Positions 10,268 to 49,429 of a stretch of DNA of 53,729 bases are shown here, piece by piece. Both the position numbers and the translations under genes were made by a program. The notes beneath the pieces are model-generated. The model was not told where the DNA came from. It was given only the letters and a program-made list of their open reading frames with translations, and made no database searches. The stretch's first letter is position 1. Each line of letters begins with the position of its first letter. The DNA lies in IMG/VR virus record IMGVR_UViG_3300036846_000650, positions 1-53,729 of that record; one strand, written 5' to 3'. The DNA comes from a virus. Its lineage: Duplodnaviria; Caudoviricetes.

Positions 10268-12662
10268 GCTTTTACAAGAATTCTTAGTAAGTGTCCGCTA
10301 CGGCGTAGACGCGGCCAGCCAGCGCTCATTCCTCGATGGGCTGAAGCGGATGGCCGGCTCGGTCTCCGGGGTGGCGGCGGAGGTGGTGGCACTGTCCGGC
10401 GCGGTGATCGCGTTTGCCGAGAAGATGGCGCGGGCCGGCGAGCAACTGTACTTCATGGGCCAGCGGATCGGCTCGACGGTCAACGACATCCAGGCGGCCA
10501 CCTTCGCGATGAGCCAACTGGGCACATCGGCCGATGACGCGAAATCCTCGATGGAGTCGCTGGGTAGGTTCCAGCGCACCTACGGCCCGGCCGCCACCGC
10601 GTATATGCGGATGCTCGGGGTGACCGCCACCGACACCGCGCACCAGATGCAGCAACTCGGCCAGATCATCGGCCGGATGGGGCCGCAGGGGAGTGTCGGC
10701 TACGCGCGCGGGCTGGCGATGGCCGGCATGATGGGGATCAGTGAAAACGCCCTGCGTGCGGTCAGCAGTCCGGAATATCAGGCGCAACTGGCGTGGTTCG
10801 ACAAGCTCACCGAGAGCATCAACAAGGCCGGCGGCAATCTCGGTCGGTTCGGTATTCTGTCGCATCAGGTCATGGATACCTTCCGACAATGGTGGGCGCT
10901 GATCGAGCAGATTGCGCAGGCATTTGCGGTCGCGTTATTCCCTGGCCTCAACAAAAACATGCAGACCATGCTGGGGATGATGCAGGCGCATATGCCGCAG
11001 ATCATCGCCTGGGTGCAGGGGGCGGCGCAGGCATTAACTGCGTTCGGCGACACCATCATGTTCGTGGTGCGCGGCCTGGGGCAGTTTACCGAATGGATCG
11101 GCAATCTCGATCCGATGATCCGGCACATCATCGAGGGCTTCGCCGGGCTGAAGGCCGCGATGTGGCTGATCGGCACGGAAATCCTGTCATCGCCGTTCGG
11201 CTGGCTGTTGATGACGCTCGGCGCGATCATGCTGTTGCTGGACGACTACAGCGCCTGGGCGTCGGGCGGCAAGTCGGCCATCAACTGGTCCTTCCTGGGG
11301 GATTTCCAGAAGAAATTCGCCGGCATCAAGGAAGGCATCGACGGCTGGATGAAGTCGATCTTTGGGGTCGAGCACGGCTTCAATGATCTGGTCGGCGCGG
11401 CAAGTGTGCTGTTCGGAGCCTGGATGCTGGGCGGCTTCGCCAAGGCGGAGGCTGCGGTCAAGGCGATCGGCGCGGCGGCCACGTCGTCACTGGGGCAATT
11501 CCTGCTCCTGACCGCAGCGATCATGGGCGCGGGGTGGCTGAAGGGAAAACTCGAACAAGGCAGCGAGGCGGTCGAGCGCTTCCTGTTTGGTGACAAGCGG
11601 GTGAACGAACGCAAGAAGATGCAGGAGCAGGGGCGCGAGCAATTCTGGCGTGGGGTGAGAAATGCGCCGTCGGCGATCGGCGGCGGCCTGGGCTGGCTAT
11701 GGCATCACACGCTTGGCTCCTCACCCGCGGCTGCGGCTGAGACCGGTGGTGGTGGCAAGACCGGCACTACCGCCACGCCAGCGGCATCGCCTGCATCGGT
11801 GGCTGCCGCGGCTGCGGCTGCGGCGACCGCGGTGGTGACTGGCGGCACGGCGGGCGGACCGGGTGGCGGTGACCCGTTCGCCTTCGACTGGTCGAAATAT
11901 GACGTGGGCGGCGCTGAGTCGAAGGACTTCCAAGACACCTACGGCCCGACCGGCATGGGCTCGCTGGGCTCGACCGGCGGGGTGGGCTCATTGCCCGGCG
12001 GCGGCATGTCCGATCCGATCTCGCCGCGGGACGCCTCTGCCAACGCGGTCCGGCTGCGCGACAAGATCATGGCCATGCTGGGAGTACCCGCCAATGTCGC
12101 GGCGGGCATCGTGTCCAATCTGATGGCCGAGTCCGGCGGCGTCTCGGACATCTGGTCGAAGATGGCACCGGTCGGCCAGGGCGGCTACGGGCTGATGCAG
12201 TGGGCTGGCTCACGCAGACGGGCACTGTTTGCTTGGGCGAAATCCAAGGGGCTCGATGCGTCCAAAGAGGACGTGCAACTGATGTTCATGAAGGAGGAGC
12301 TTGCCGCCAAATTCCCTGGCTTACTCGGCCGGATGGGAGGGATGACCGCGGAGCAGGCGGCCGGGCTATTCTTCGATGTCGCTGAGTCGGGCGGCGCGCA
12401 AAGTCTGATGCAGTATCGCCCCGGGCATATGGCGTGGGCCAGGAATGTAGAGCGGGCCTCCTCCGCAGACTTCGCGACTCCAGCGCCTTCGACGCCGATG
12501 ACCCGGCAGCACGCTTCGGCCGGAGGGCCGATGAACTTGCATCATCAGGTGGCGATCAATCTGCACGCGCCGGACCCGCACACCGGGGCGCGGCTGGTAG
12601 CGGATAATCAGGCCAGGATGCACGAGGACCTCGTGCGCAAGGCCGGTGGAGTGCTGGTATGA
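10254..12662 (+). CDS. Tape measure protein with C-terminal phage tail lysozyme domain
   Basis: LLQEFLVSV start; long Ala/Gly helical region with hydrophobic segments; AAGIVSNLMAESG...GYGLMQW lysozyme-like motif. Confidence 0.9.
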   Translation: MAATELLQEFLVSVRYGVDAASQRSFLDGLKRMAGSVSGVAAEVVALSGAVIAFAEKMARAGEQLYFMGQRIGSTVNDIQAATFAMSQLGTSADDAKSSMESLGRFQRTYGPAATAYMRMLGVTATDTAHQMQQLGQIIGRMGPQGSVGYARGLAMAGMMGISENALRAVSSPEYQAQLAWFDKLTESINKAGGNLGRFGILSHQVMDTFRQWWALIEQIAQAFAVALFPGLNKNMQTMLGMMQAHMPQIIAWVQGAAQALTAFGDTIMFVVRGLGQFTEWIGNLDPMIRHIIEGFAGLKAAMWLIGTEILSSPFGWLLMTLGAIMLLLDDYSAWASGGKSAINWSFLGDFQKKFAGIKEGIDGWMKSIFGVEHGFNDLVGAASVLFGAWMLGGFAKAEAAVKAIGAAATSSLGQFLLLTAAIMGAGWLKGKLEQGSEAVERFLFGDKRVNERKKMQEQGREQFWRGVRNAPSAIGGGLGWLWHHTLGSSPAAAAETGGGGKTGTTATPAASPASVAAAAAAAATAVVTGGTAGGPGGGDPFAFDWSKYDVGGAESKDFQDTYGPTGMGSLGSTGGVGSLPGGGMSDPISPRDASANAVRLRDKIMAMLGVPANVAAGIVSNLMAESGGVSDIWSKMAPVGQGGYGLMQWAGSRRRALFAWAKSKGLDASKEDVQLMFMKEELAAKFPGLLGRMGGMTAEQAAGLFFDVAESGGAQSLMQYRPGHMAWARNVERASSADFATPAPSTPMTRQHASAGGPMNLHHQVAINLHAPDPHTGARLVADNQARMHEDLVRKAGGVLV

Positions 12663-42687: not shown

Positions 42688-42763
42688 TCGCCAGAGCGGA
42701 ATTGCCCCGGCGACACCTGGAAATATATTCAGGACGGTCGATTAAATCAAGCGAAAAATACGC
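42688..42763 (-). promoter_or_regulatory. Early promoter plus CAAUUCCG leader hairpin, copy 1
   Basis: TTGATT-17-TATATT; stem TCGCCGGGG/CTCTGGCGA. Confidence 0.75.
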
Positions 42764-44061: not shown

Positions 44062-44300
44062 GGCCGCTCCTCCCGGCGCTGGCGCGGGCCACTGTCCTTC
44101 GAGCCCCTAGGACGGCCTCGGGGCCGCGGTGGGCCCTCTGGCGGCGTCCGGGTAGGTGGTAGGCCGTCCAGCTTGGCCAGGGCGCGTACGTGCCTCACAA
44201 GGGCATATGCGCCGTGCCGCCAGATCAGCCGGCGCAGCGTCCGGGTGGTCTCGGTGGAGAGCCCCGGGATCGGTGGCTTCCAGCCCGCTCGCAACGCCAT
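44058..44300 (-). CDS. Small AT-hook protein
   Basis: AAGGAG SD; RPRGRPRGSKD. Confidence 0.6.
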   Translation of the reverse strand: MALRAGWKPPIPGLSTETTRTLRRLIWRHGAYALVRHVRALAKLDGLPPTRTPPEGPPRPRGRPRGSKDSGPRQRREERP

Positions 44301-44312
44301 GGGAAGTCTCCT

Positions 44313-44453
44313 TTAAGCCGGTGGCAGCCGCTTGGCGGTCACCACGATTTCTGGAATGTCCTGTTGCGGCGGGAGGGAGTATTCCCAAGAGAGGAATACC
44401 CCAGCGCCGACAAGCAGGTGCAGGATCAGCGAGATCAGGGCCAGCTTGGCCAT
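44313..44453 (-). CDS. 46-aa TonB/TolA-N-terminus-like mini-protein
   Basis: TGATG-coupled; MAKLALISLILHLLVGAGVFLSWEYSLPPQQDIPEIVVTAKRLPPA. Confidence 0.55.
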   Translation of the reverse strand: MAKLALISLILHLLVGAGVFLSWEYSLPPQQDIPEIVVTAKRLPPA

Positions 44454-45094
44454 CACGCCACCCCCTCGCAGGAGAGGGCGGCGGTGGTCTTGGCACCCCA
44501 GGGTAGTCCGAAGTGCTCAGCGCAGTCCGGGCCATACCCGACGGCCTTGCTGTCCGGGTGGGTCAGTTCCTTCTGGCAGAAGCAGCAGTGATGGGTGGCG
44601 ACGCCGTAGGCTGCCGCGGTGCCGGCCGGGTCGTTGGCCAGCACGGCGAGGAGCCCGGCCACCGCAAGCTGGGTGGCATGGTCCACCTTGCCCGACACCT
44701 GCCACGCGCCGTCCGGGCTGACGCGGCCATACCAGACGTTGGAGCCAAACTTGCCGCCGTCGGTGACGTTCACCGTGCCCGGCTGCTTGGCCTTCTCGCC
44801 CGCGAGCGACAGCACGATCTTGCGGCCATCGTTGAGCTTCAGGGCGATCTTGGGGAATGCCTTGTGCTGCTTGGCGGCGGCGAATAGCGCGATGACGCCA
44901 GCGAAGTTGCCCACCTCGACCGCGGGAGCGGCTGCCGGCGCGGTGCCGGTGGCGCGCTGCGCCAGCTTCATGATCCAATACATCTGCTTCTCGGAGGGAT
45001 GGCTGGCCGACAGCAGGGAGTGGGCGAAAGCCTGATCCTTGGCGGGCAGGCTGGCGAGGTTTTCGGTGAGGGTGATGATCGGGTTGATTTCCAT
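44453..45094 (-). CDS. DUF6011-type Zn-binding protein
   Basis: CCFCQKELT.PDS..VGYGPDCA motif. Confidence 0.82.
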   Translation of the reverse strand: MEINPIITLTENLASLPAKDQAFAHSLLSASHPSEKQMYWIMKLAQRATGTAPAAAPAVEVGNFAGVIALFAAAKQHKAFPKIALKLNDGRKIVLSLAGEKAKQPGTVNVTDGGKFGSNVWYGRVSPDGAWQVSGKVDHATQLAVAGLLAVLANDPAGTAAAYGVATHHCCFCQKELTHPDSKAVGYGPDCAEHFGLPWGAKTTAALSCEGVA

Positions 45095-45114
45095 CGGGGT
45101 GGTTCCGTCTGAAG

Positions 45115-45190
45115 GGCCCGAGCGGAATTGCTCCGGCCACGACGAAAATATACGCATTTCGGGTATTTTTCGCAAGGGAAAAAATACACC
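45115..45190 (-). promoter_or_regulatory. Early promoter plus CAAUUCCG leader hairpin, copy 2
   Basis: TTGCGA-17-TATATT; stem GGCCGGAG/CTCGGGCC. Confidence 0.75.
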
Positions 45191-45210
45191 AAATCTGAAT
45201 TATTTTAATT

Positions 45211-45515
45211 CGGCTGGTGGTAGCGTTTCAGCGCATTCCACCTAACGCCAGCCGTTGGCGACCCCTCCGGGGTCCGGTGCTGTTTTACCGGTAGCTGACC
45301 GGCTTCGCTTCATCGGGTGCAGCCCGACTAGCCGGGAGCGACCCCGGCACGTCTGAATAAGGGAGGGCGGCCAGCCTTACCCGTACCGTTTTAAGCCCAC
45401 CTAGGGATTGCCCCTTGTCCAGCCCGGCCATGAATGATCACAGGGGTGACCGGGAGGTGGGGAGGCTGGCCATGTCGCGTTGTGCCCTCGTCAACTGTGA
45501 AACCGGTGGGACCCC
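45211..45515 (-). ncRNA. Candidate structured non-coding RNA
   Basis: About 300 nt with no credible ORF and at least nine stems, including a multibranch domain. Confidence 0.5.
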
Positions 45516-46634
45516 CTATGCTGCCACGAGCGCCCGGCCGTTGGCGGTAGCGATCTCCGTCCACTGGCTCCTGGATAGGTCGATGATCTCGCCGCCCATG
45601 CGCTCGAATTCACTGGCGCGGTCATAGGACGACAGGTCCTCCGCCGTCCGCGTCACCGCGTTGTACAAGCCGTAGCGTGTCAGATCGCCACCCTCGATCA
45701 AGTTCTTCAGGACGGAGGAGCGCTCGCCCTCGTTCATCTCAAACTTGCGGGCGGTCAGTTCCACCACCTTGACCACGTCGGCCTCGATCGGCTGGCTGGC
45801 GGTGTCGGCGATCTTCTTGACCCGGGCCTCGAAGGCGGCCTCGTTGAAGGCACCGCGGACCACGTCGCGCACCTGCATCCAGATCGCCTTGTCGGTCTGG
45901 CGGCGGGTCTCGTCGGACAGCAACTCGCGGATATTGTCCACCACTGAGGAGAGATCGTGACGGGCCCCCAGGTGGCGCTTCTTCATGCCTTGGTCGGCAA
46001 ACACCGCGAGGTTGGTGCACGCCCTGGTCCAGACGCCGGACTCTACCGACAGCATACCAACGCCGACTTCTGAGTTGCTGATGATGACCGCGGGGGCGCA
46101 GGTGTCGAAGATGGTGTGGCTGCCGTCGCCCATGCGGCGGCCCGACGGGATGTCGAGATTGATGCTCTGGTCCACGCACTTGATGTAGAGCCGGCGTTCG
46201 GTGATCTGTGCGGAGACGACTTCGAGCCGAAGGTCCATCAGCACCGGCAGCACGGCCTCCGCCAGTTCGACATTCTCCAGCGGGCGGTAGCCGTCGGACA
46301 GGAAGGCGCGCATCCGGCCGTCCATGGTGCGGACCATCCGCTTGGCGCTGGGGTCCTGGGCCATCCAGGCGTTGACGTTCTGGGCCAGGAGGTCGGGCAT
46401 CTTGGCCAGCATCCGGTCGTAGTATTTGCCCGGAATGTTGGTGAAGGTGCCGATCTGGTCATGGGCCAGACTGTTGATGCCGAATTGTGTCTCATGGCCG
46501 ACGCGCATGGCCACGCCGCCATCGCCGTCGTTCATCATGGTGAGTGCCTTAACGGGCGCGATCAGATCGTGCTTGGCGTTGGCCTGCCGCTCGATCTCGC
46601 GGGCGAGGTCCTGGAGGGAGAGTCCGGTCTTCAT
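45516..46634 (-). CDS. DUF932-family protein
   Basis: RAFLSDGYRPLEN, ISNSEVG.G and RACTNL motifs; AAGGAG SD. Confidence 0.85.
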   Translation of the reverse strand: MKTGLSLQDLAREIERQANAKHDLIAPVKALTMMNDGDGGVAMRVGHETQFGINSLAHDQIGTFTNIPGKYYDRMLAKMPDLLAQNVNAWMAQDPSAKRMVRTMDGRMRAFLSDGYRPLENVELAEAVLPVLMDLRLEVVSAQITERRLYIKCVDQSINLDIPSGRRMGDGSHTIFDTCAPAVIISNSEVGVGMLSVESGVWTRACTNLAVFADQGMKKRHLGARHDLSSVVDNIRELLSDETRRQTDKAIWMQVRDVVRGAFNEAAFEARVKKIADTASQPIEADVVKVVELTARKFEMNEGERSSVLKNLIEGGDLTRYGLYNAVTRTAEDLSSYDRASEFERMGGEIIDLSRSQWTEIATANGRALVAA

Positions 46635-46671
46635 AGGGGAAATGCTCCTTGGGGTGCAGTGTGCTGGTCGT

Positions 46672-46755
46672 CCGAGCGGAATTGCCCGGGCCGGAAATAA
46701 ATAGGGCTTTGCGAATTAAATGTCCATGGAAAAATACCGCTACCGGGTATTTTCC
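46672..46755 (-). promoter_or_regulatory. Early promoter plus CAAUUCCG leader hairpin, copy 3, with upstream palindrome
   Basis: TGGACA-17-TATTTA; stem CCGGG/CTCGG; GGAAAATACC-N7-GGTATTTTTCC. Confidence 0.7.
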
Positions 46756-46970
46756 TTGGATTTCCTCCGGCCTCGACCTGGAGCCTCTGGCACCAGCCAT
46801 GGCCAGCCCGAGCGCCGGGCGCAGTCCATGCACAGCCGTCGCTCCGGGCCGCCCGACAGCACGAAGACCGTGGCTGGACGCCGCGGGTGCCGTTCACAGC
46901 GCAATGACGTTGGGCTTCCGGTGGTAACGTGCACGAGAGCACTATGCGCGTGCACGTGCAGAATGGTCAC
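46740..46970 (-). CDS. Small Zn-finger-like hypothetical protein
   Basis: CERH...CMDC. Confidence 0.4.
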   Translation of the reverse strand: MTILHVHAHSALVHVTTGSPTSLRCERHPRRPATVFVLSGGPERRLCMDCARRSGWPWLVPEAPGRGRRKSKENTR

Positions 46971-46972
46971 AT

Positions 46973-47002
46973 AGAAAAGGGGCGGACCCTGCGGCCCGCC
47001 CC
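46973..47002 (-). terminator. Rho-independent terminator
   Basis: Minus strand GGGGCGGGCC-GCAG-GGTCCGCCCC then TTTTCT; adjacent 12-bp tandem repeat GCCCCCGTCTCA x2. Confidence 0.75.
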
Positions 47003-47018
47003 CGTCTCAGCCCCCGTC

Positions 47019-47297: not shown

Positions 47298-47825
47298 TTA
47301 GCCGGTCGCTGGCATGGCCGGCATCTCCGGGTAGGCCGCGAGTGTCGGCCGCCCCTTCCTGCGGTGGCGTTGGCGCTCCACGTAAGTCGGGCTCTTGTCG
47401 TCCCATGAGTCGCGGACCGCCTCGTTCAGTCCCTTGTGGGCTGCCTTCGGCATCCGGTGGTCCCGGTAGCCCTGCTTGATCACCCGCAGGTAATAGTCGC
47501 TGGGCGGCATGATCCCGGTGGAGTTCATGACGTAGATCAGCATCTCGGTTTCGCCCATCGGGGTGCGCTTGATCTGGATGTATTCCTTGCGATACAGCCC
47601 GGAGCCGATCCCCTCATAGATGTCCAGCGCCACCTCGCAGGTTGGCGTGATCCGCCACACCCCGCCGTAGCAGATTGCGCCGGGCTCCTGGATGACATCG
47701 GCCACGCCGCGGAAGACCAGCCGCCAGTTGGCCAGCCGCATCCGCCCGAGCGGCTCCGCGTCCGGGCAGCGCTTCGCCATCTGTTCGACATTCAGGTTGC
47801 TGCCGTAGGCAAACATCAGCGCCAT
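47298..47825 (-). CDS. Gamma-glutamylcyclotransferase (GGCT/AIG2-like)
   Basis: FAYGSNL...QM..RCP, LD.YEG...Y and PS..Y..VI..GY motifs. Confidence 0.92.
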   Translation of the reverse strand: MALMFAYGSNLNVEQMAKRCPDAEPLGRMRLANWRLVFRGVADVIQEPGAICYGGVWRITPTCEVALDIYEGIGSGLYRKEYIQIKRTPMGETEMLIYVMNSTGIMPPSDYYLRVIKQGYRDHRMPKAAHKGLNEAVRDSWDDKSPTYVERQRHRRKGRPTLAAYPEMPAMPATG

Positions 47826-48265
47826 CACACGACTCCTTCATTGCCGTAGGCGGTCATGCCCAGCGCCAGTGCGGCGCACGCCAGTCCGATGTAGTGGGGA
47901 ATACGCTGGCCTGTCTCCCAGCCTGCCAGGGAGTTTCTGGAGCAGCCCAGCATCTTGGCAGCCTCAGCCTGCGAGTAGCCCATCCGTTCCCGCCACACGA
48001 TCAGCGTAGGCCCGTCCAGGGCCGCGTTGGGCCGGGTCGGGCTTGGCTTCTCAGGGGGCGTGATGGCCACCTCGCCGGGGCTGTCGTTGTCCAGATCGAT
48101 CGCGATGTGACGGAAGGCGCGCACTCCGTGGCGGGAAACTTCCGCCCGCTCAGCAAAGCCAAGGGTGCGGAAGATCGCGCAAAGCTGGGCCTCGTTCATG
48201 CCGGTGTGCCATGCCATGCGGCCAAGATCGGCCGCGGCTTCTGTGGTGAGGGTTTGTGTATTCAT
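47825..48265 (-). CDS. XRE-family HTH protein
   Basis: WRERMGYSQAEAAKMLGCSRNSLAGWETG..IP..I.LAC.AL. Confidence 0.85.
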   Translation of the reverse strand: MNTQTLTTEAAADLGRMAWHTGMNEAQLCAIFRTLGFAERAEVSRHGVRAFRHIAIDLDNDSPGEVAITPPEKPSPTRPNAALDGPTLIVWRERMGYSQAEAAKMLGCSRNSLAGWETGQRIPHYIGLACAALALGMTAYGNEGVV

Positions 48266-48318
48266 TTGAGCCGGTTCCTTTCGTGTTGGAGCATATATGC
48301 GCTGATGCCTGCCCTAAT

Positions 48319-49344
48319 TCAAGCAGCCATCGCCATTGAGCTAGAAAGATGCGCCGTCCGGGCCGTGAAGAAGGCCCGTTCGGCATCGTCAAGGCCGAGC
48401 TTGCCAAACAGCCCTTCGAGGCTGGCTGGAGCTTCGGTGGAGGCAGCCGCGGCCTGGGCGAAGTACCTCACGACGCGGCCGGTCCGCTGGGTGGTGTAGG
48501 CCAGCCCGCACTCGCGAGCCCGCTGCGGCAGGGAGATCGACGGCCAGCCGGTGGCTGCGCACGCCTCCTCGCGGGTCACGCCCTCAGTGCGGAGCATCAG
48601 TTGCCCGACAAGGTGGCCCTTGCTGCCCAGGCGGGCGCGGTTGATTGCTCCGCCGCCGGTAGCGATGCCGTTGCCGGACTTGGCTGCCCATACCAGCTTG
48701 AGGCAGAGCAGTATCCAGTTGCGCACCTTGGCGTTGTCCAGCGTGCCCTGATGCTGGCGGAATTCAACGGTCTGGTGGGCGCGGTAGGCACAGAGGTTGA
48801 GCTTGGTATAGCGTGCCGTGTGGCCTGGGGGCGTCAGTGCCCGGATGAGCCCCTCCACGCTGTCCGTCCGATCGATGGTGCGGAAGGGGACGTTGGTCAC
48901 CGAGCGGCAGTAGGACGCAGCGCTGGCGCGCCGTGACGCCGCCATGAAGCGGTCGATCACCGGCTCGAAGTGCGCGTAGAGCTTCAGCAGGTTGCGGAAA
49001 AACGCTATGTTGCCGTTGCCGTGGCCGACGCCGACATGGACGTGGGTCCCGCACAGCTTGGACACCGTGCAGCCCATGTCATTGAGGAGCGCCAGCACCG
49101 TGGCGACCGTCTCCAGGCCGGCCTCGCCTTGCAGGACGGGAGAGACGAATTCCGCCCCGCGGGCGTAATCGTTGAGCGAGCCGTCAGTGACGATCTTCCA
49201 CCATGTGCGGGTTTGGTGGTTGTAGCTCTCGGGCCGGCAGTCGATGCCCTGATTGGTGAGCGCCATCGCCGCCGCGCCATGGGAAAGGCCGACGGGGAGG
49301 TAGACTTCAAACTCCACGCCGAAGGTTTGGTCGAGGTAGGCCAT
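48319..49344 (-). CDS. Putative amidoligase (Amidoligase_2) with DUF3489-like insert
   Basis: TFGVEFE, WKIVTDGSL, EFVSPVL, CGTHVHVG, RY.KLN and TVEFRQHQGT motifs. Confidence 0.92.
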   Translation of the reverse strand: MAYLDQTFGVEFEVYLPVGLSHGAAAMALTNQGIDCRPESYNHQTRTWWKIVTDGSLNDYARGAEFVSPVLQGEAGLETVATVLALLNDMGCTVSKLCGTHVHVGVGHGNGNIAFFRNLLKLYAHFEPVIDRFMAASRRASAASYCRSVTNVPFRTIDRTDSVEGLIRALTPPGHTARYTKLNLCAYRAHQTVEFRQHQGTLDNAKVRNWILLCLKLVWAAKSGNGIATGGGAINRARLGSKGHLVGQLMLRTEGVTREEACAATGWPSISLPQRARECGLAYTTQRTGRVVRYFAQAAAASTEAPASLEGLFGKLGLDDAERAFFTARTAHLSSSMAMAA

Positions 49345-49382
49345 CTGTCGAAGCTCCATGTGGTGGATCAGTGTGCGGCACA

Positions 49383-49429
49383 AATATGCGCAATCACCAC
49401 GGGATAGTCAAGCACTAATTTGCGCAATC
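49383..49429 (-). promoter_or_regulatory. Early promoter with GATTGCGCA direct repeats
   Basis: TTGACT-17-CATATT; GATTGCGCA(A/T)ATT upstream of the -35 and overlapping the -10. Confidence 0.65.

Follow-up and report, generated by a model that had tools for sequence, protein, structure and literature searches.

The pRNA of phi29-type phages is a phage RNA of ~120 to 170 nt with two loops that carry complementary 4-nt words, which vary between phages yet remain complementary. These loops pair between molecules, building a ring. The tRNA gene cluster of phage T4 includes small stable RNAs, species 1 and 2, that are cotranscribed with the tRNAs. Purine and lysine riboswitch aptamers have a multihelix junction that is held by a kissing loop. 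To our knowledge, structured RNAs with covarying tertiary contacts are rare, and such RNAs have repeatedly proved to be ribozymes, riboswitches, or large RNA machines. According to PMC12286853, ROOL and GOLLD are RNAs of phages and prophages that often lie beside tRNA islands, have no known function, and possess a covarying structure with pseudoknots, in an architecture in which loop-mediated contacts matter. HDV-like theta ribozymes are presented in PMC10879173 as small structured RNAs located directly after phage tRNA genes.

The RNA analyzed here is best described as a new family within a known kind, the phage-borne structured noncoding RNAs, and it is absent from the Rfam catalogue. One copy lies in the window, which is the whole 53,729-base IMG/VR virus record that was analyzed (estimated completeness, 74%; G+C content, 64%). 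We hold with high confidence that positions 45201 to 45362, read on the minus strand, are a copy of a conserved structured RNA of ~150 to 200 nt; this confidence covers the conserved structure and the strand.

In context the new RNA is closest to ROOL and GOLLD, because it is phage-borne and lies inside phage tRNA arrays in three contexts. However, ROOL and GOLLD are ~580 nt and >800 nt, compared with ~150 to 200 nt for the new RNA, which has alphaproteobacterial hosts, and the ROOL and GOLLD models gave no match in the window (E ≤ 10) or in seven other loci (E ≤ 1). The resemblance to phi29-type pRNA is in logic only. Two loops of the new RNA carry covarying complementary words, but Rfam gives no match, the carriers are unrelated to phi29-like phages and have an ordinary terminase and portal, and no link to packaging was seen. 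With species 1 and 2 of T4 there is an analogy of context alone, with no sequence or structural relation expected. Like purine and lysine riboswitches, the new RNA has helices held together by a kissing loop, with an alternative pairing possible after them. Unlike riboswitches, it has neither a conserved class of downstream gene nor an Rfam match, in several copies the strand of the RNA carries no gene downstream, and its position across contexts is not the constant one, upstream of a single gene class, that characterizes a riboswitch or leader. The theta ribozymes (PMC10879173) are the closest precedent for a small RNA immediately after phage tRNAs. However, no HDV-type model matched the new RNA, its helix order and pseudoknot topology appear to differ from the consensus features of the HDV type, and most copies follow protein genes.

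The window encodes a large terminase, a portal, a tail lysozyme, and a RecT protein, and the gap that contains the RNA sits in a block of minus-strand accessory genes (~40.8 to 49.4 kb). Upstream of the gap is a gene for a DUF932-like protein of 372 amino acids (45516 to 46634, minus strand; Pfam PF06067, E = 5.9e-4, which is under the curated cutoff). This protein had 4092 relatives at E ≤ 1e-10 among the 8000 candidates scored. Downstream is a gene for a DUF6011 protein (44453 to 45097, minus strand; Pfam PF19474, E = 6e-12), whose open reading frame starts at either 45097 (ATG) or 45175 (TTG). The gap is therefore real, because the DUF932-like frame ends at 45516 and the DUF6011 frame starts at one of these two positions. 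A preliminary description of this DNA had presented it as a large gap in a tightly packed genome; the gap itself is borne out by the gene boundaries, but the tight packing is not, as the window has several other gaps of 200 to 1000 nt. The gap is noncoding and has three parts: the RNA, which takes up about half of it, a spacer, and a promoter region. Small open reading frames, which the preliminary description had named as an alternative explanation, were considered and rejected. Stop codons occur in all frames and the GC3 bias of genes is absent; for example, 45353 to 45515 has stops in all six frames and a GC3 of 0.57 to 0.68, versus ~0.85 in genes. Folding energy proved to be a weak indicator when taken alone. 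The folding z-score of the whole 340-nt gap was −1.37 on the minus strand, where 12 of 100 shuffles folded equally well, and −2.11 on the plus strand, where 5 of 100 did so. It is comparative evidence, rather than folding energy, that goes beyond chance, and it does so only for 45201 to 45362.

A blastn search of the window against a phage collection gave one weak match, 50 nt at 85% identity, in an intergenic region of Rhodobacter phage RcXuper. In this alignment hairpins stand at equivalent places and the sequences of their stems differ. The RcXuper stretch matches phages DSS3_MAL1, RpAliso, and MD18 at 78 to 83% identity. An anchored pattern made from conserved positions found 2 IMG/VR loci and 10 metagenome loci, two of the latter being duplicates, and a looser 19-mer scan added one divergent IMG/VR copy, L050 (L-numbers are labels of the loci compared; for example, L034 is DSS3_MAL1 and L036 is MD18). 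A first combined pattern had no matches in IMG/VR, and of four new loci found there with a third pattern, none passed the covariance model. The strict pattern found no loci in genome_contigs, which holds one genome each of 185,579 species. The loose 19-mer matched 88 stretches of genome_contigs (80 listed, mostly from Streptomyces), which were judged to be chance matches because the covariance model keeps none of them convincingly; the best of the 80 listed, L064 at 23.6 bits and L062 at 18.3 bits, are both partial or weak. L062, L064, and L111 were left out of the covariation alignment on account of their weak or partial model matches.

Two covariance models, R1 and R2, were built only from seven sequences of one clade, with the window excluded. 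Model R2 nevertheless matched the window over its full length at 45201 to 45362 on the minus strand (75.8 bits, E ~ 2e-26), and R1, which has the opposite orientation, scored 70 bits. R2 recovers 16 of 16 distinct copies at E ≤ 1.6e-10, and the homologues that the preliminary description had proposed to look for were found only for 45201 to 45362. The element is 133 to 213 nt long in 15 full-model matches; the match in L040 is partial (85 nt). The copies come from this virus, four cultured Rhodobacteraceae phages (RcXuper, DSS3_MAL1, RpAliso, and MD18), three other IMG/VR contigs, and eight metagenome contigs, with 7 of the 16 from one clade of ~149-kb phages. All carriers look viral, and the RNA is common to unrelated phages of Alphaproteobacteria. 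Each of five whole phage records has one copy, and a search of 151 genomes belonging to the family of a Rhodovulum genome, which served as the center, found none. The laboratory hosts of the four cultured carriers are Rhodobacter capsulatus YW1 for RcXuper, Ruegeria pomeroyi DSS-3 for RpAliso and DSS3_MAL1, and Phaeobacter inhibens DSM 17395 for MD18, and an RNA of ~150 to 200 nt is small enough for structure work. The small size, the cultured phages, and the tRNA context like that of ROOL and GOLLD therefore make this a tractable system for studying the function of a phage RNA.

The RNA does not travel with the DUF932 gene that precedes it in the window. None of 28 loci encoding relatives of the DUF932 protein matched the RNA model, and blastn likewise found nothing similar to the gap in them, so the RNA has no fixed link with this DUF932 family. 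These 28 loci came from an alignment scan, a scan with the single DUF932 protein having returned no loci; a scan with the DUF6011 protein found 2 distant loci. The plasmid collection had no match to this region of the window, and tblastx of the carrier loci against the window gave noise only.

The preliminary description could not match the sequence to a tRNA, a tmRNA, or a known ribozyme, and the searches agree. Rfam 15 had no match to the window at gathering score, and in seven other copies the matches at E ≤ 1 were only tRNAs and noise. The best Rfam 15 matches in 44800 to 45900 were IRES_HIF1, in the coding region, at 19.1 bits (cutoff, 110) and Pseudomon-groES at 15.4 bits (cutoff, 50; E = 5.1). 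ARAGORN called no tRNA or tmRNA genes in the window and elsewhere called only flanking tRNAs, none of which overlaps the element. By none of the model matches run does the RNA belong to a known family. In the papers found on RcXuper, DSS3_MAL1, RpAliso, and MD18 (for MD18, PMC7643831), no mention of a noncoding RNA was found. PMC10690425 is a catalogue of 10,006 uncurated candidate viral RNAs, and this family may already stand among those candidates. The earlier designation of the sequence as an undescribed phage noncoding RNA thus applies to 45201 to 45362, which has homologues, covariation, tertiary pairings, and no Rfam match, but not to the rest of the gap, in which no sign of selected structure was seen.

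The core of the RNA consists of five hairpins, E', D', C', B', and A', together with a variable 3' domain, H1'. On the minus strand of the window the RNA begins with helix E' (GCCGGG/CCCGGC, 45331 to 45348; loop GUCGCU), which is 100% paired in the alignment (helix 1) and has 2 compensatory pairs. The junction CUAGUC between E' and D' (45326 to 45331) is kept in all 16 copies, one of which has UAGUG, a conservation that the search pattern partly forced. Helix D' (UCGGG/CCCGA, 45313 to 45327; loop CUGCA; helix 3) is also 100% paired, with 3 compensatory pairs. It is followed by a conserved linker, UGAAGCGAAG at 45303 to 45312 in the window and GAUGAUNGAAG in the family consensus, and by helix C' (CCGGU/ACCGG, 45288 to 45302; loop CAGCU; helix 5), in which all 5 pairs are compensatory. 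An A-rich linker, UAAAACAGCACCGGA (45273 to 45287), holds GCA (45278 to 45280), which is a pseudoknot partner, and a conserved CCGGA. Helix B' (CCCC-GGA-GGGG, 45262 to 45272; helix 6) is 98.4% paired and nearly invariant. B' never varies and so is uninformative for or against pairing, and it served as a search anchor, so that its invariance is in part ascertainment. In helix A' (CGCCA/UGGCG, 45246 to 45260; loop ACGGC; helices 7 and 8) the inner three pairs are all compensatory, one of them being CG in 5, GC in 4, and UA in 4 copies. The 3' domain is reduced in the window (45211 to 45242): H1' (GGUGG/CCACC, 45238 to 45242 with 45216 to 45220) encloses a small hairpin, GCG-CUGAAA-CGC, and is followed by the tail AGCCG (45211 to 45215). 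In H1' pairing is 100% across all 12 aligned copies, 3 of 4 pairs are compensatory, and the size of the domain varies among copies. In L039 an extra insertion of ~28 nt (~10650 to 10680) lies between A' and the H1' domain; the A'/H1' junction therefore tolerates insertions.

All of the complementarities listed in the preliminary description are present in the sequence, and four of its hairpins, at 45260 to 45274, 45288 to 45302, 45313 to 45327, and 45331 to 45348, are the conserved B', C', D', and E'. Among the alternative CCGGT/ACCGG pairings that it placed at 45274 to 45302, one, at 45288 to 45302, is C'.

In the alignment fitted to the model, pairing extends to 94.9% of cells, and compensatory changes occur in 17 of 31 pairs, versus 8.3 ± 1.7 in shuffles (0 of 500 reached 17) and 4 to 6 in controls slid by 1 to 3 columns; because 7 of the 16 copies are from a single clade, independent events are fewer than the cell counts suggest. 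Anchor patterns supplied most of the copies, and these anchors inflate the invariance of B' and of GACUAGCC. All helices except B' covary, giving six covarying helices. RNAalifold proposed a 3-bp CGG/CCG pairing that is invariant across the alignment. A long-range helix, P1 (GGCUGGU with ACUAGCC in plus-strand letters), was rejected because it overlaps three covarying helices and has an A·C mismatch on the favored strand.

Two tertiary pairings were found in loops that the model had left unconstrained, by scanning for covarying column pairs outside the nested helices; they were picked after the fact. The first is a kissing loop. In all copies the E' and C' loops are complementary, with words that differ (GUCA/UGAC, CGCU/AGCG, CAUCA/UGAUG, UGCCA/UGGCA, AACCA/UGGUU, and others). 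The summed complementarity was 55, compared with 39.6 ± 3.0 when the loops were re-dealt among copies, and 0 of 10,000 permutations reached it. In the window, GCU in the E' loop (45337 to 45339) pairs with AGC in the C' loop (45294 to 45296) on the minus strand. The second is a pseudoknot between three D'-loop bases and the word GCN, located in the linker that follows C'; in the window these are UGC (45319 to 45321) and GCA (45278 to 45280), again on the minus strand. The N pair of this pseudoknot (columns 45 and 106) is CG in 5 copies, UA in 5, GC in 3, UG in 1, and another combination in 1. Adding both pairings brings the compensatory pairs to 20 of 36 and the paired cells to 96.8%. The kissing loop between E' and C' and the pseudoknot of the D' loop therefore indicate that the molecule folds compactly and into a definite form in three dimensions. 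There is also a tentative third pairing, in which the tail beyond H1' joins the A' loop. All 12 aligned copies have at least 4 bp of this pairing, and its two sides change together in RpAliso, L037, and L041, yet it was not significant by permutation (711 of 10,000). In the window it corresponds to the stem that the preliminary description drew between 45211 to 45217 and 45248 to 45254, which shares this tentative standing.

The genes around the RNA differ among carriers. The dense tRNA arrays, in which the RNA stands between tRNA genes or immediately behind one, contain 11 tRNAs in 3.6 kb (L040), 9 tRNAs (L042), and 8 tRNAs (L050), and in L050, an IMG/VR contig of 160,725 bases, the RNA lies between tRNA-Ser and tRNA-Val. 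L040 and L042 have in common an identical copy of the RNA and two adjacent tRNAs, and the rest differs. Most copies are not beside tRNAs and are preceded by protein genes. The nearest upstream gene or tRNA is co-oriented with the RNA in 13 of 14 distinct contexts, by our reading, and the remaining one is geneless within 1 kb. In most copies other than the one in the window, the RNA starts ~0 to 50 nt past the upstream stop codon or tRNA. Downstream of it are DUF6011, small unknown open reading frames, an AAA ATPase, DUF7717, a methyltransferase, tRNAs, or a convergent gene. Outside the clade of ~149-kb phages the flanking proteins have no similarity between carriers. The neighboring genes are thus unconserved, so the RNA looks like a self-contained module.

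A different DUF932 gene (PF06067, E = 2.8e-37) stands directly upstream of the RNA in L037 (6008 to 6868), with a strong hairpin between them. The presence of a DUF932 gene beside the RNA in two unrelated carriers, the window and L037, may be a coincidence. In DSS3_MAL1 (1320 to 1976) and MD18 (1319 to 1567), deposited "hypothetical protein" coding sequences extend into the RNA and terminate at a UAG inside its conserved 5' part. The annotation of these two phages therefore includes hypothetical protein calls that end inside an RNA element.

We prefer, in about equal belief and doubt, to read the RNA as a self-contained module that acts in trans by binding a partner. Read-through from the upstream gene, here the DUF932 gene, would yield the RNA. 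In tRNA arrays it would be made within the transcript of the array and released by tRNA-processing or other RNases. The compact folded RNA might then bind a partner of the host or the phage, such as a protein, the ribosome, or tRNA-related machinery, and no particular neighboring gene would be regulated by it. The scattered neighbors, the single copy per genome, and the absence of the RNA beside DUF932 relatives favor a self-contained RNA module of phages over a regulator of a single class of genes. The preliminary description had offered a cis-regulatory RNA as an option; control of one particular gene is unlikely, because the flanking genes differ from phage to phage.

However, a cis-acting 3'-end element would explain equally well why the RNA constantly sits just behind a co-oriented gene and why a few copies have U-rich tails. 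Such an element, which we consider rather unlikely, would be a conditional terminator or attenuator (riboswitch-like) or a stability or insulator structure for the upstream transcript. The RNA is always just downstream of a co-oriented gene or tRNA; in DSS3_MAL1, MD18, and L039 it occupies the interval that separates convergent genes, a place at which one would expect a terminator, and in the window it lies between two promoter-driven units. Pairing of the A' loop and 3' half with the tail after H1' would give a long stem that excludes A' (at least 4 bp in 12 of 12 copies), and a U-rich run follows this stem in RcXuper, L043, and L037. The permutation result for this pairing (711 of 10,000) counts against it, however. 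The GC-rich hairpin plus U run of an intrinsic terminator was not found as a feature of the family: there is a real U tract after the 3' domain in only ~3 to 4 of 15 copies, the window has none, and a terminator scan of 44300 to 46800 on the minus strand found no site, whereas this phage has a canonical terminator elsewhere (~46970 to 47003). A plain terminator would also require no kissing loop or pseudoknot, and the downstream genes are unrelated or are tRNAs, so that no common regulated function is visible.

A new self-cleaving or self-processing ribozyme, which would cut a polycistronic transcript at a conserved junction and separate the upstream gene or tRNA from the rest, is unlikely. 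The compact pseudoknotted fold, with conserved junctions (CUAGUC, GAUGAUNGAAG, and CCGGA) and variable peripheral stems, is what such a ribozyme might look like, and the scattered, unrelated gene contexts are compatible with it. In the three tRNA-array contexts the first helix begins ~5 to 7 nt after the 3' end of the tRNA, and the theta ribozymes provide a precedent beside phage tRNAs (PMC10879173). However, the RNA matches no ribozyme family in Rfam 15, including hammerhead, HDV-like/theta, twister, and other self-cleaving ribozymes. Its helix order, junctions, and tertiary pairs appear to be unlike the hammerhead core or the HDV double pseudoknot, judged by their consensus features, and newly found structured RNAs are mostly not ribozymes. 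A related option is a homo-oligomer formed through the covarying loops, by analogy with the rings of phi29 pRNA and the cages of ROOL and GOLLD. Considered jointly, a new self-cleaving or processing ribozyme and a homo-oligomer, with alphaproteobacterial phages using the RNA together with their tRNA sets, would be a rather doubtful proposition.

It is very unlikely that the functional product is instead a small RNA from the plus strand, with CCUCC anti-Shine-Dalgarno-like motifs and antisense to the flanking operon. The motifs CCUCCAC and CCCCUCCGGGG do occur on the plus strand, which in the window lies downstream of an AT-rich region, and the folding z-score of 45209 to 45357 is slightly better on that strand (−2.29, versus an unremarkable −1.48 on the minus strand). 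The two orientations do not differ in overall pairing (95.2% for plus and 94.9% for minus). However, when pairs that close loops are set aside, the window-minus orientation has 11 G·U and 0 A·C, and in this form the RNA runs in the same direction as the tRNA genes beside it in three contexts (L040/L042, L044, and L050) and as flanking genes. The wobbles and the co-oriented tRNAs and genes therefore indicate that the RNA is read from the same strand as the DUF932 and DUF6011 genes. Furthermore, the alignment has no conserved promoter upstream of the plus orientation, and the promoter scan of the region gave minus-strand sites only.

Chance structure in GC-rich spacer DNA or a DNA-level element (an origin, packaging, or attachment site) is barely credible and would be viable only for the spacer (45363 to 45515), because, although folding energies are near those of shuffles across much of the gap and two copies adjoin tRNA genes, which are common integration sites, it cannot explain compensatory changes in six helices plus loop-loop pairing across unrelated phages, and the carriers include ~149-kb phages in which no integration context was seen.

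The spacer runs from the stop codon of the DUF932 gene to the RNA and is noncoding and unexplained. It holds the 45369-to-45471 region that the preliminary description had interpreted as a multibranch domain, with a further pseudoknot between CCCCU and AGGGG. Neither feature is supported. The folding z-score of 45360 to 45480 is at chance level (−0.26 for plus and +0.22 for minus), and blastn and tblastx found no homologue of the spacer in any locus compared or in the phage and plasmid collections.

On the other side of the RNA, 45120 to 45210 is the AT-rich promoter region of the DUF6011 gene (minus strand; G+C, 0.42 to 0.48) and lies outside the RNA. The promoter scan found 3 sites versus 0.4 expected, including a sigma-70-like site on the minus strand (TTGCGA-17-TATATT, 45175 to 45147). 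Promoter-like sites stand before both the DUF932 and the DUF6011 genes; thus each appears to have its own promoter, and the RNA is at the 3' end of the DUF932 unit. A motif, CAATTCCGCTC, lies at 45130 to 45120, behind the promoter-like site of the DUF6011 gene. By eye the same word occurs at ~42710, 45125, and 46685, before the gene that starts at ~42681, the DUF6011 gene, and the gene that starts at 46634. Three promoter-like regions on the minus strand (~42700 to 42760, 45120 to 45175, and 46670 to 46710) each have a TATATT/TATTTA box, and in all three CAATTCCGCTC is part of a partial palindrome 13 to 17 nt after the box. The motif may be a phage-specific operator or a shared 5'-UTR hairpin.

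The minus-strand block of the DUF932 gene also includes an amidoligase (PF12224) gene and a gamma-glutamyl cyclotransferase-like (AIG2/GGACT) gene at 47298 to 49383 of the window. A second noncoding stretch, of ~380 nt (46760 to 47018), lies upstream of the DUF932 gene. It opens with a canonical terminator on the minus strand (~47003 to 46968), GGGGCGGGCC-GCAG-GGTCCGCCCC and then TTTTCT, after which there is ~200 nt of GC-rich sequence.
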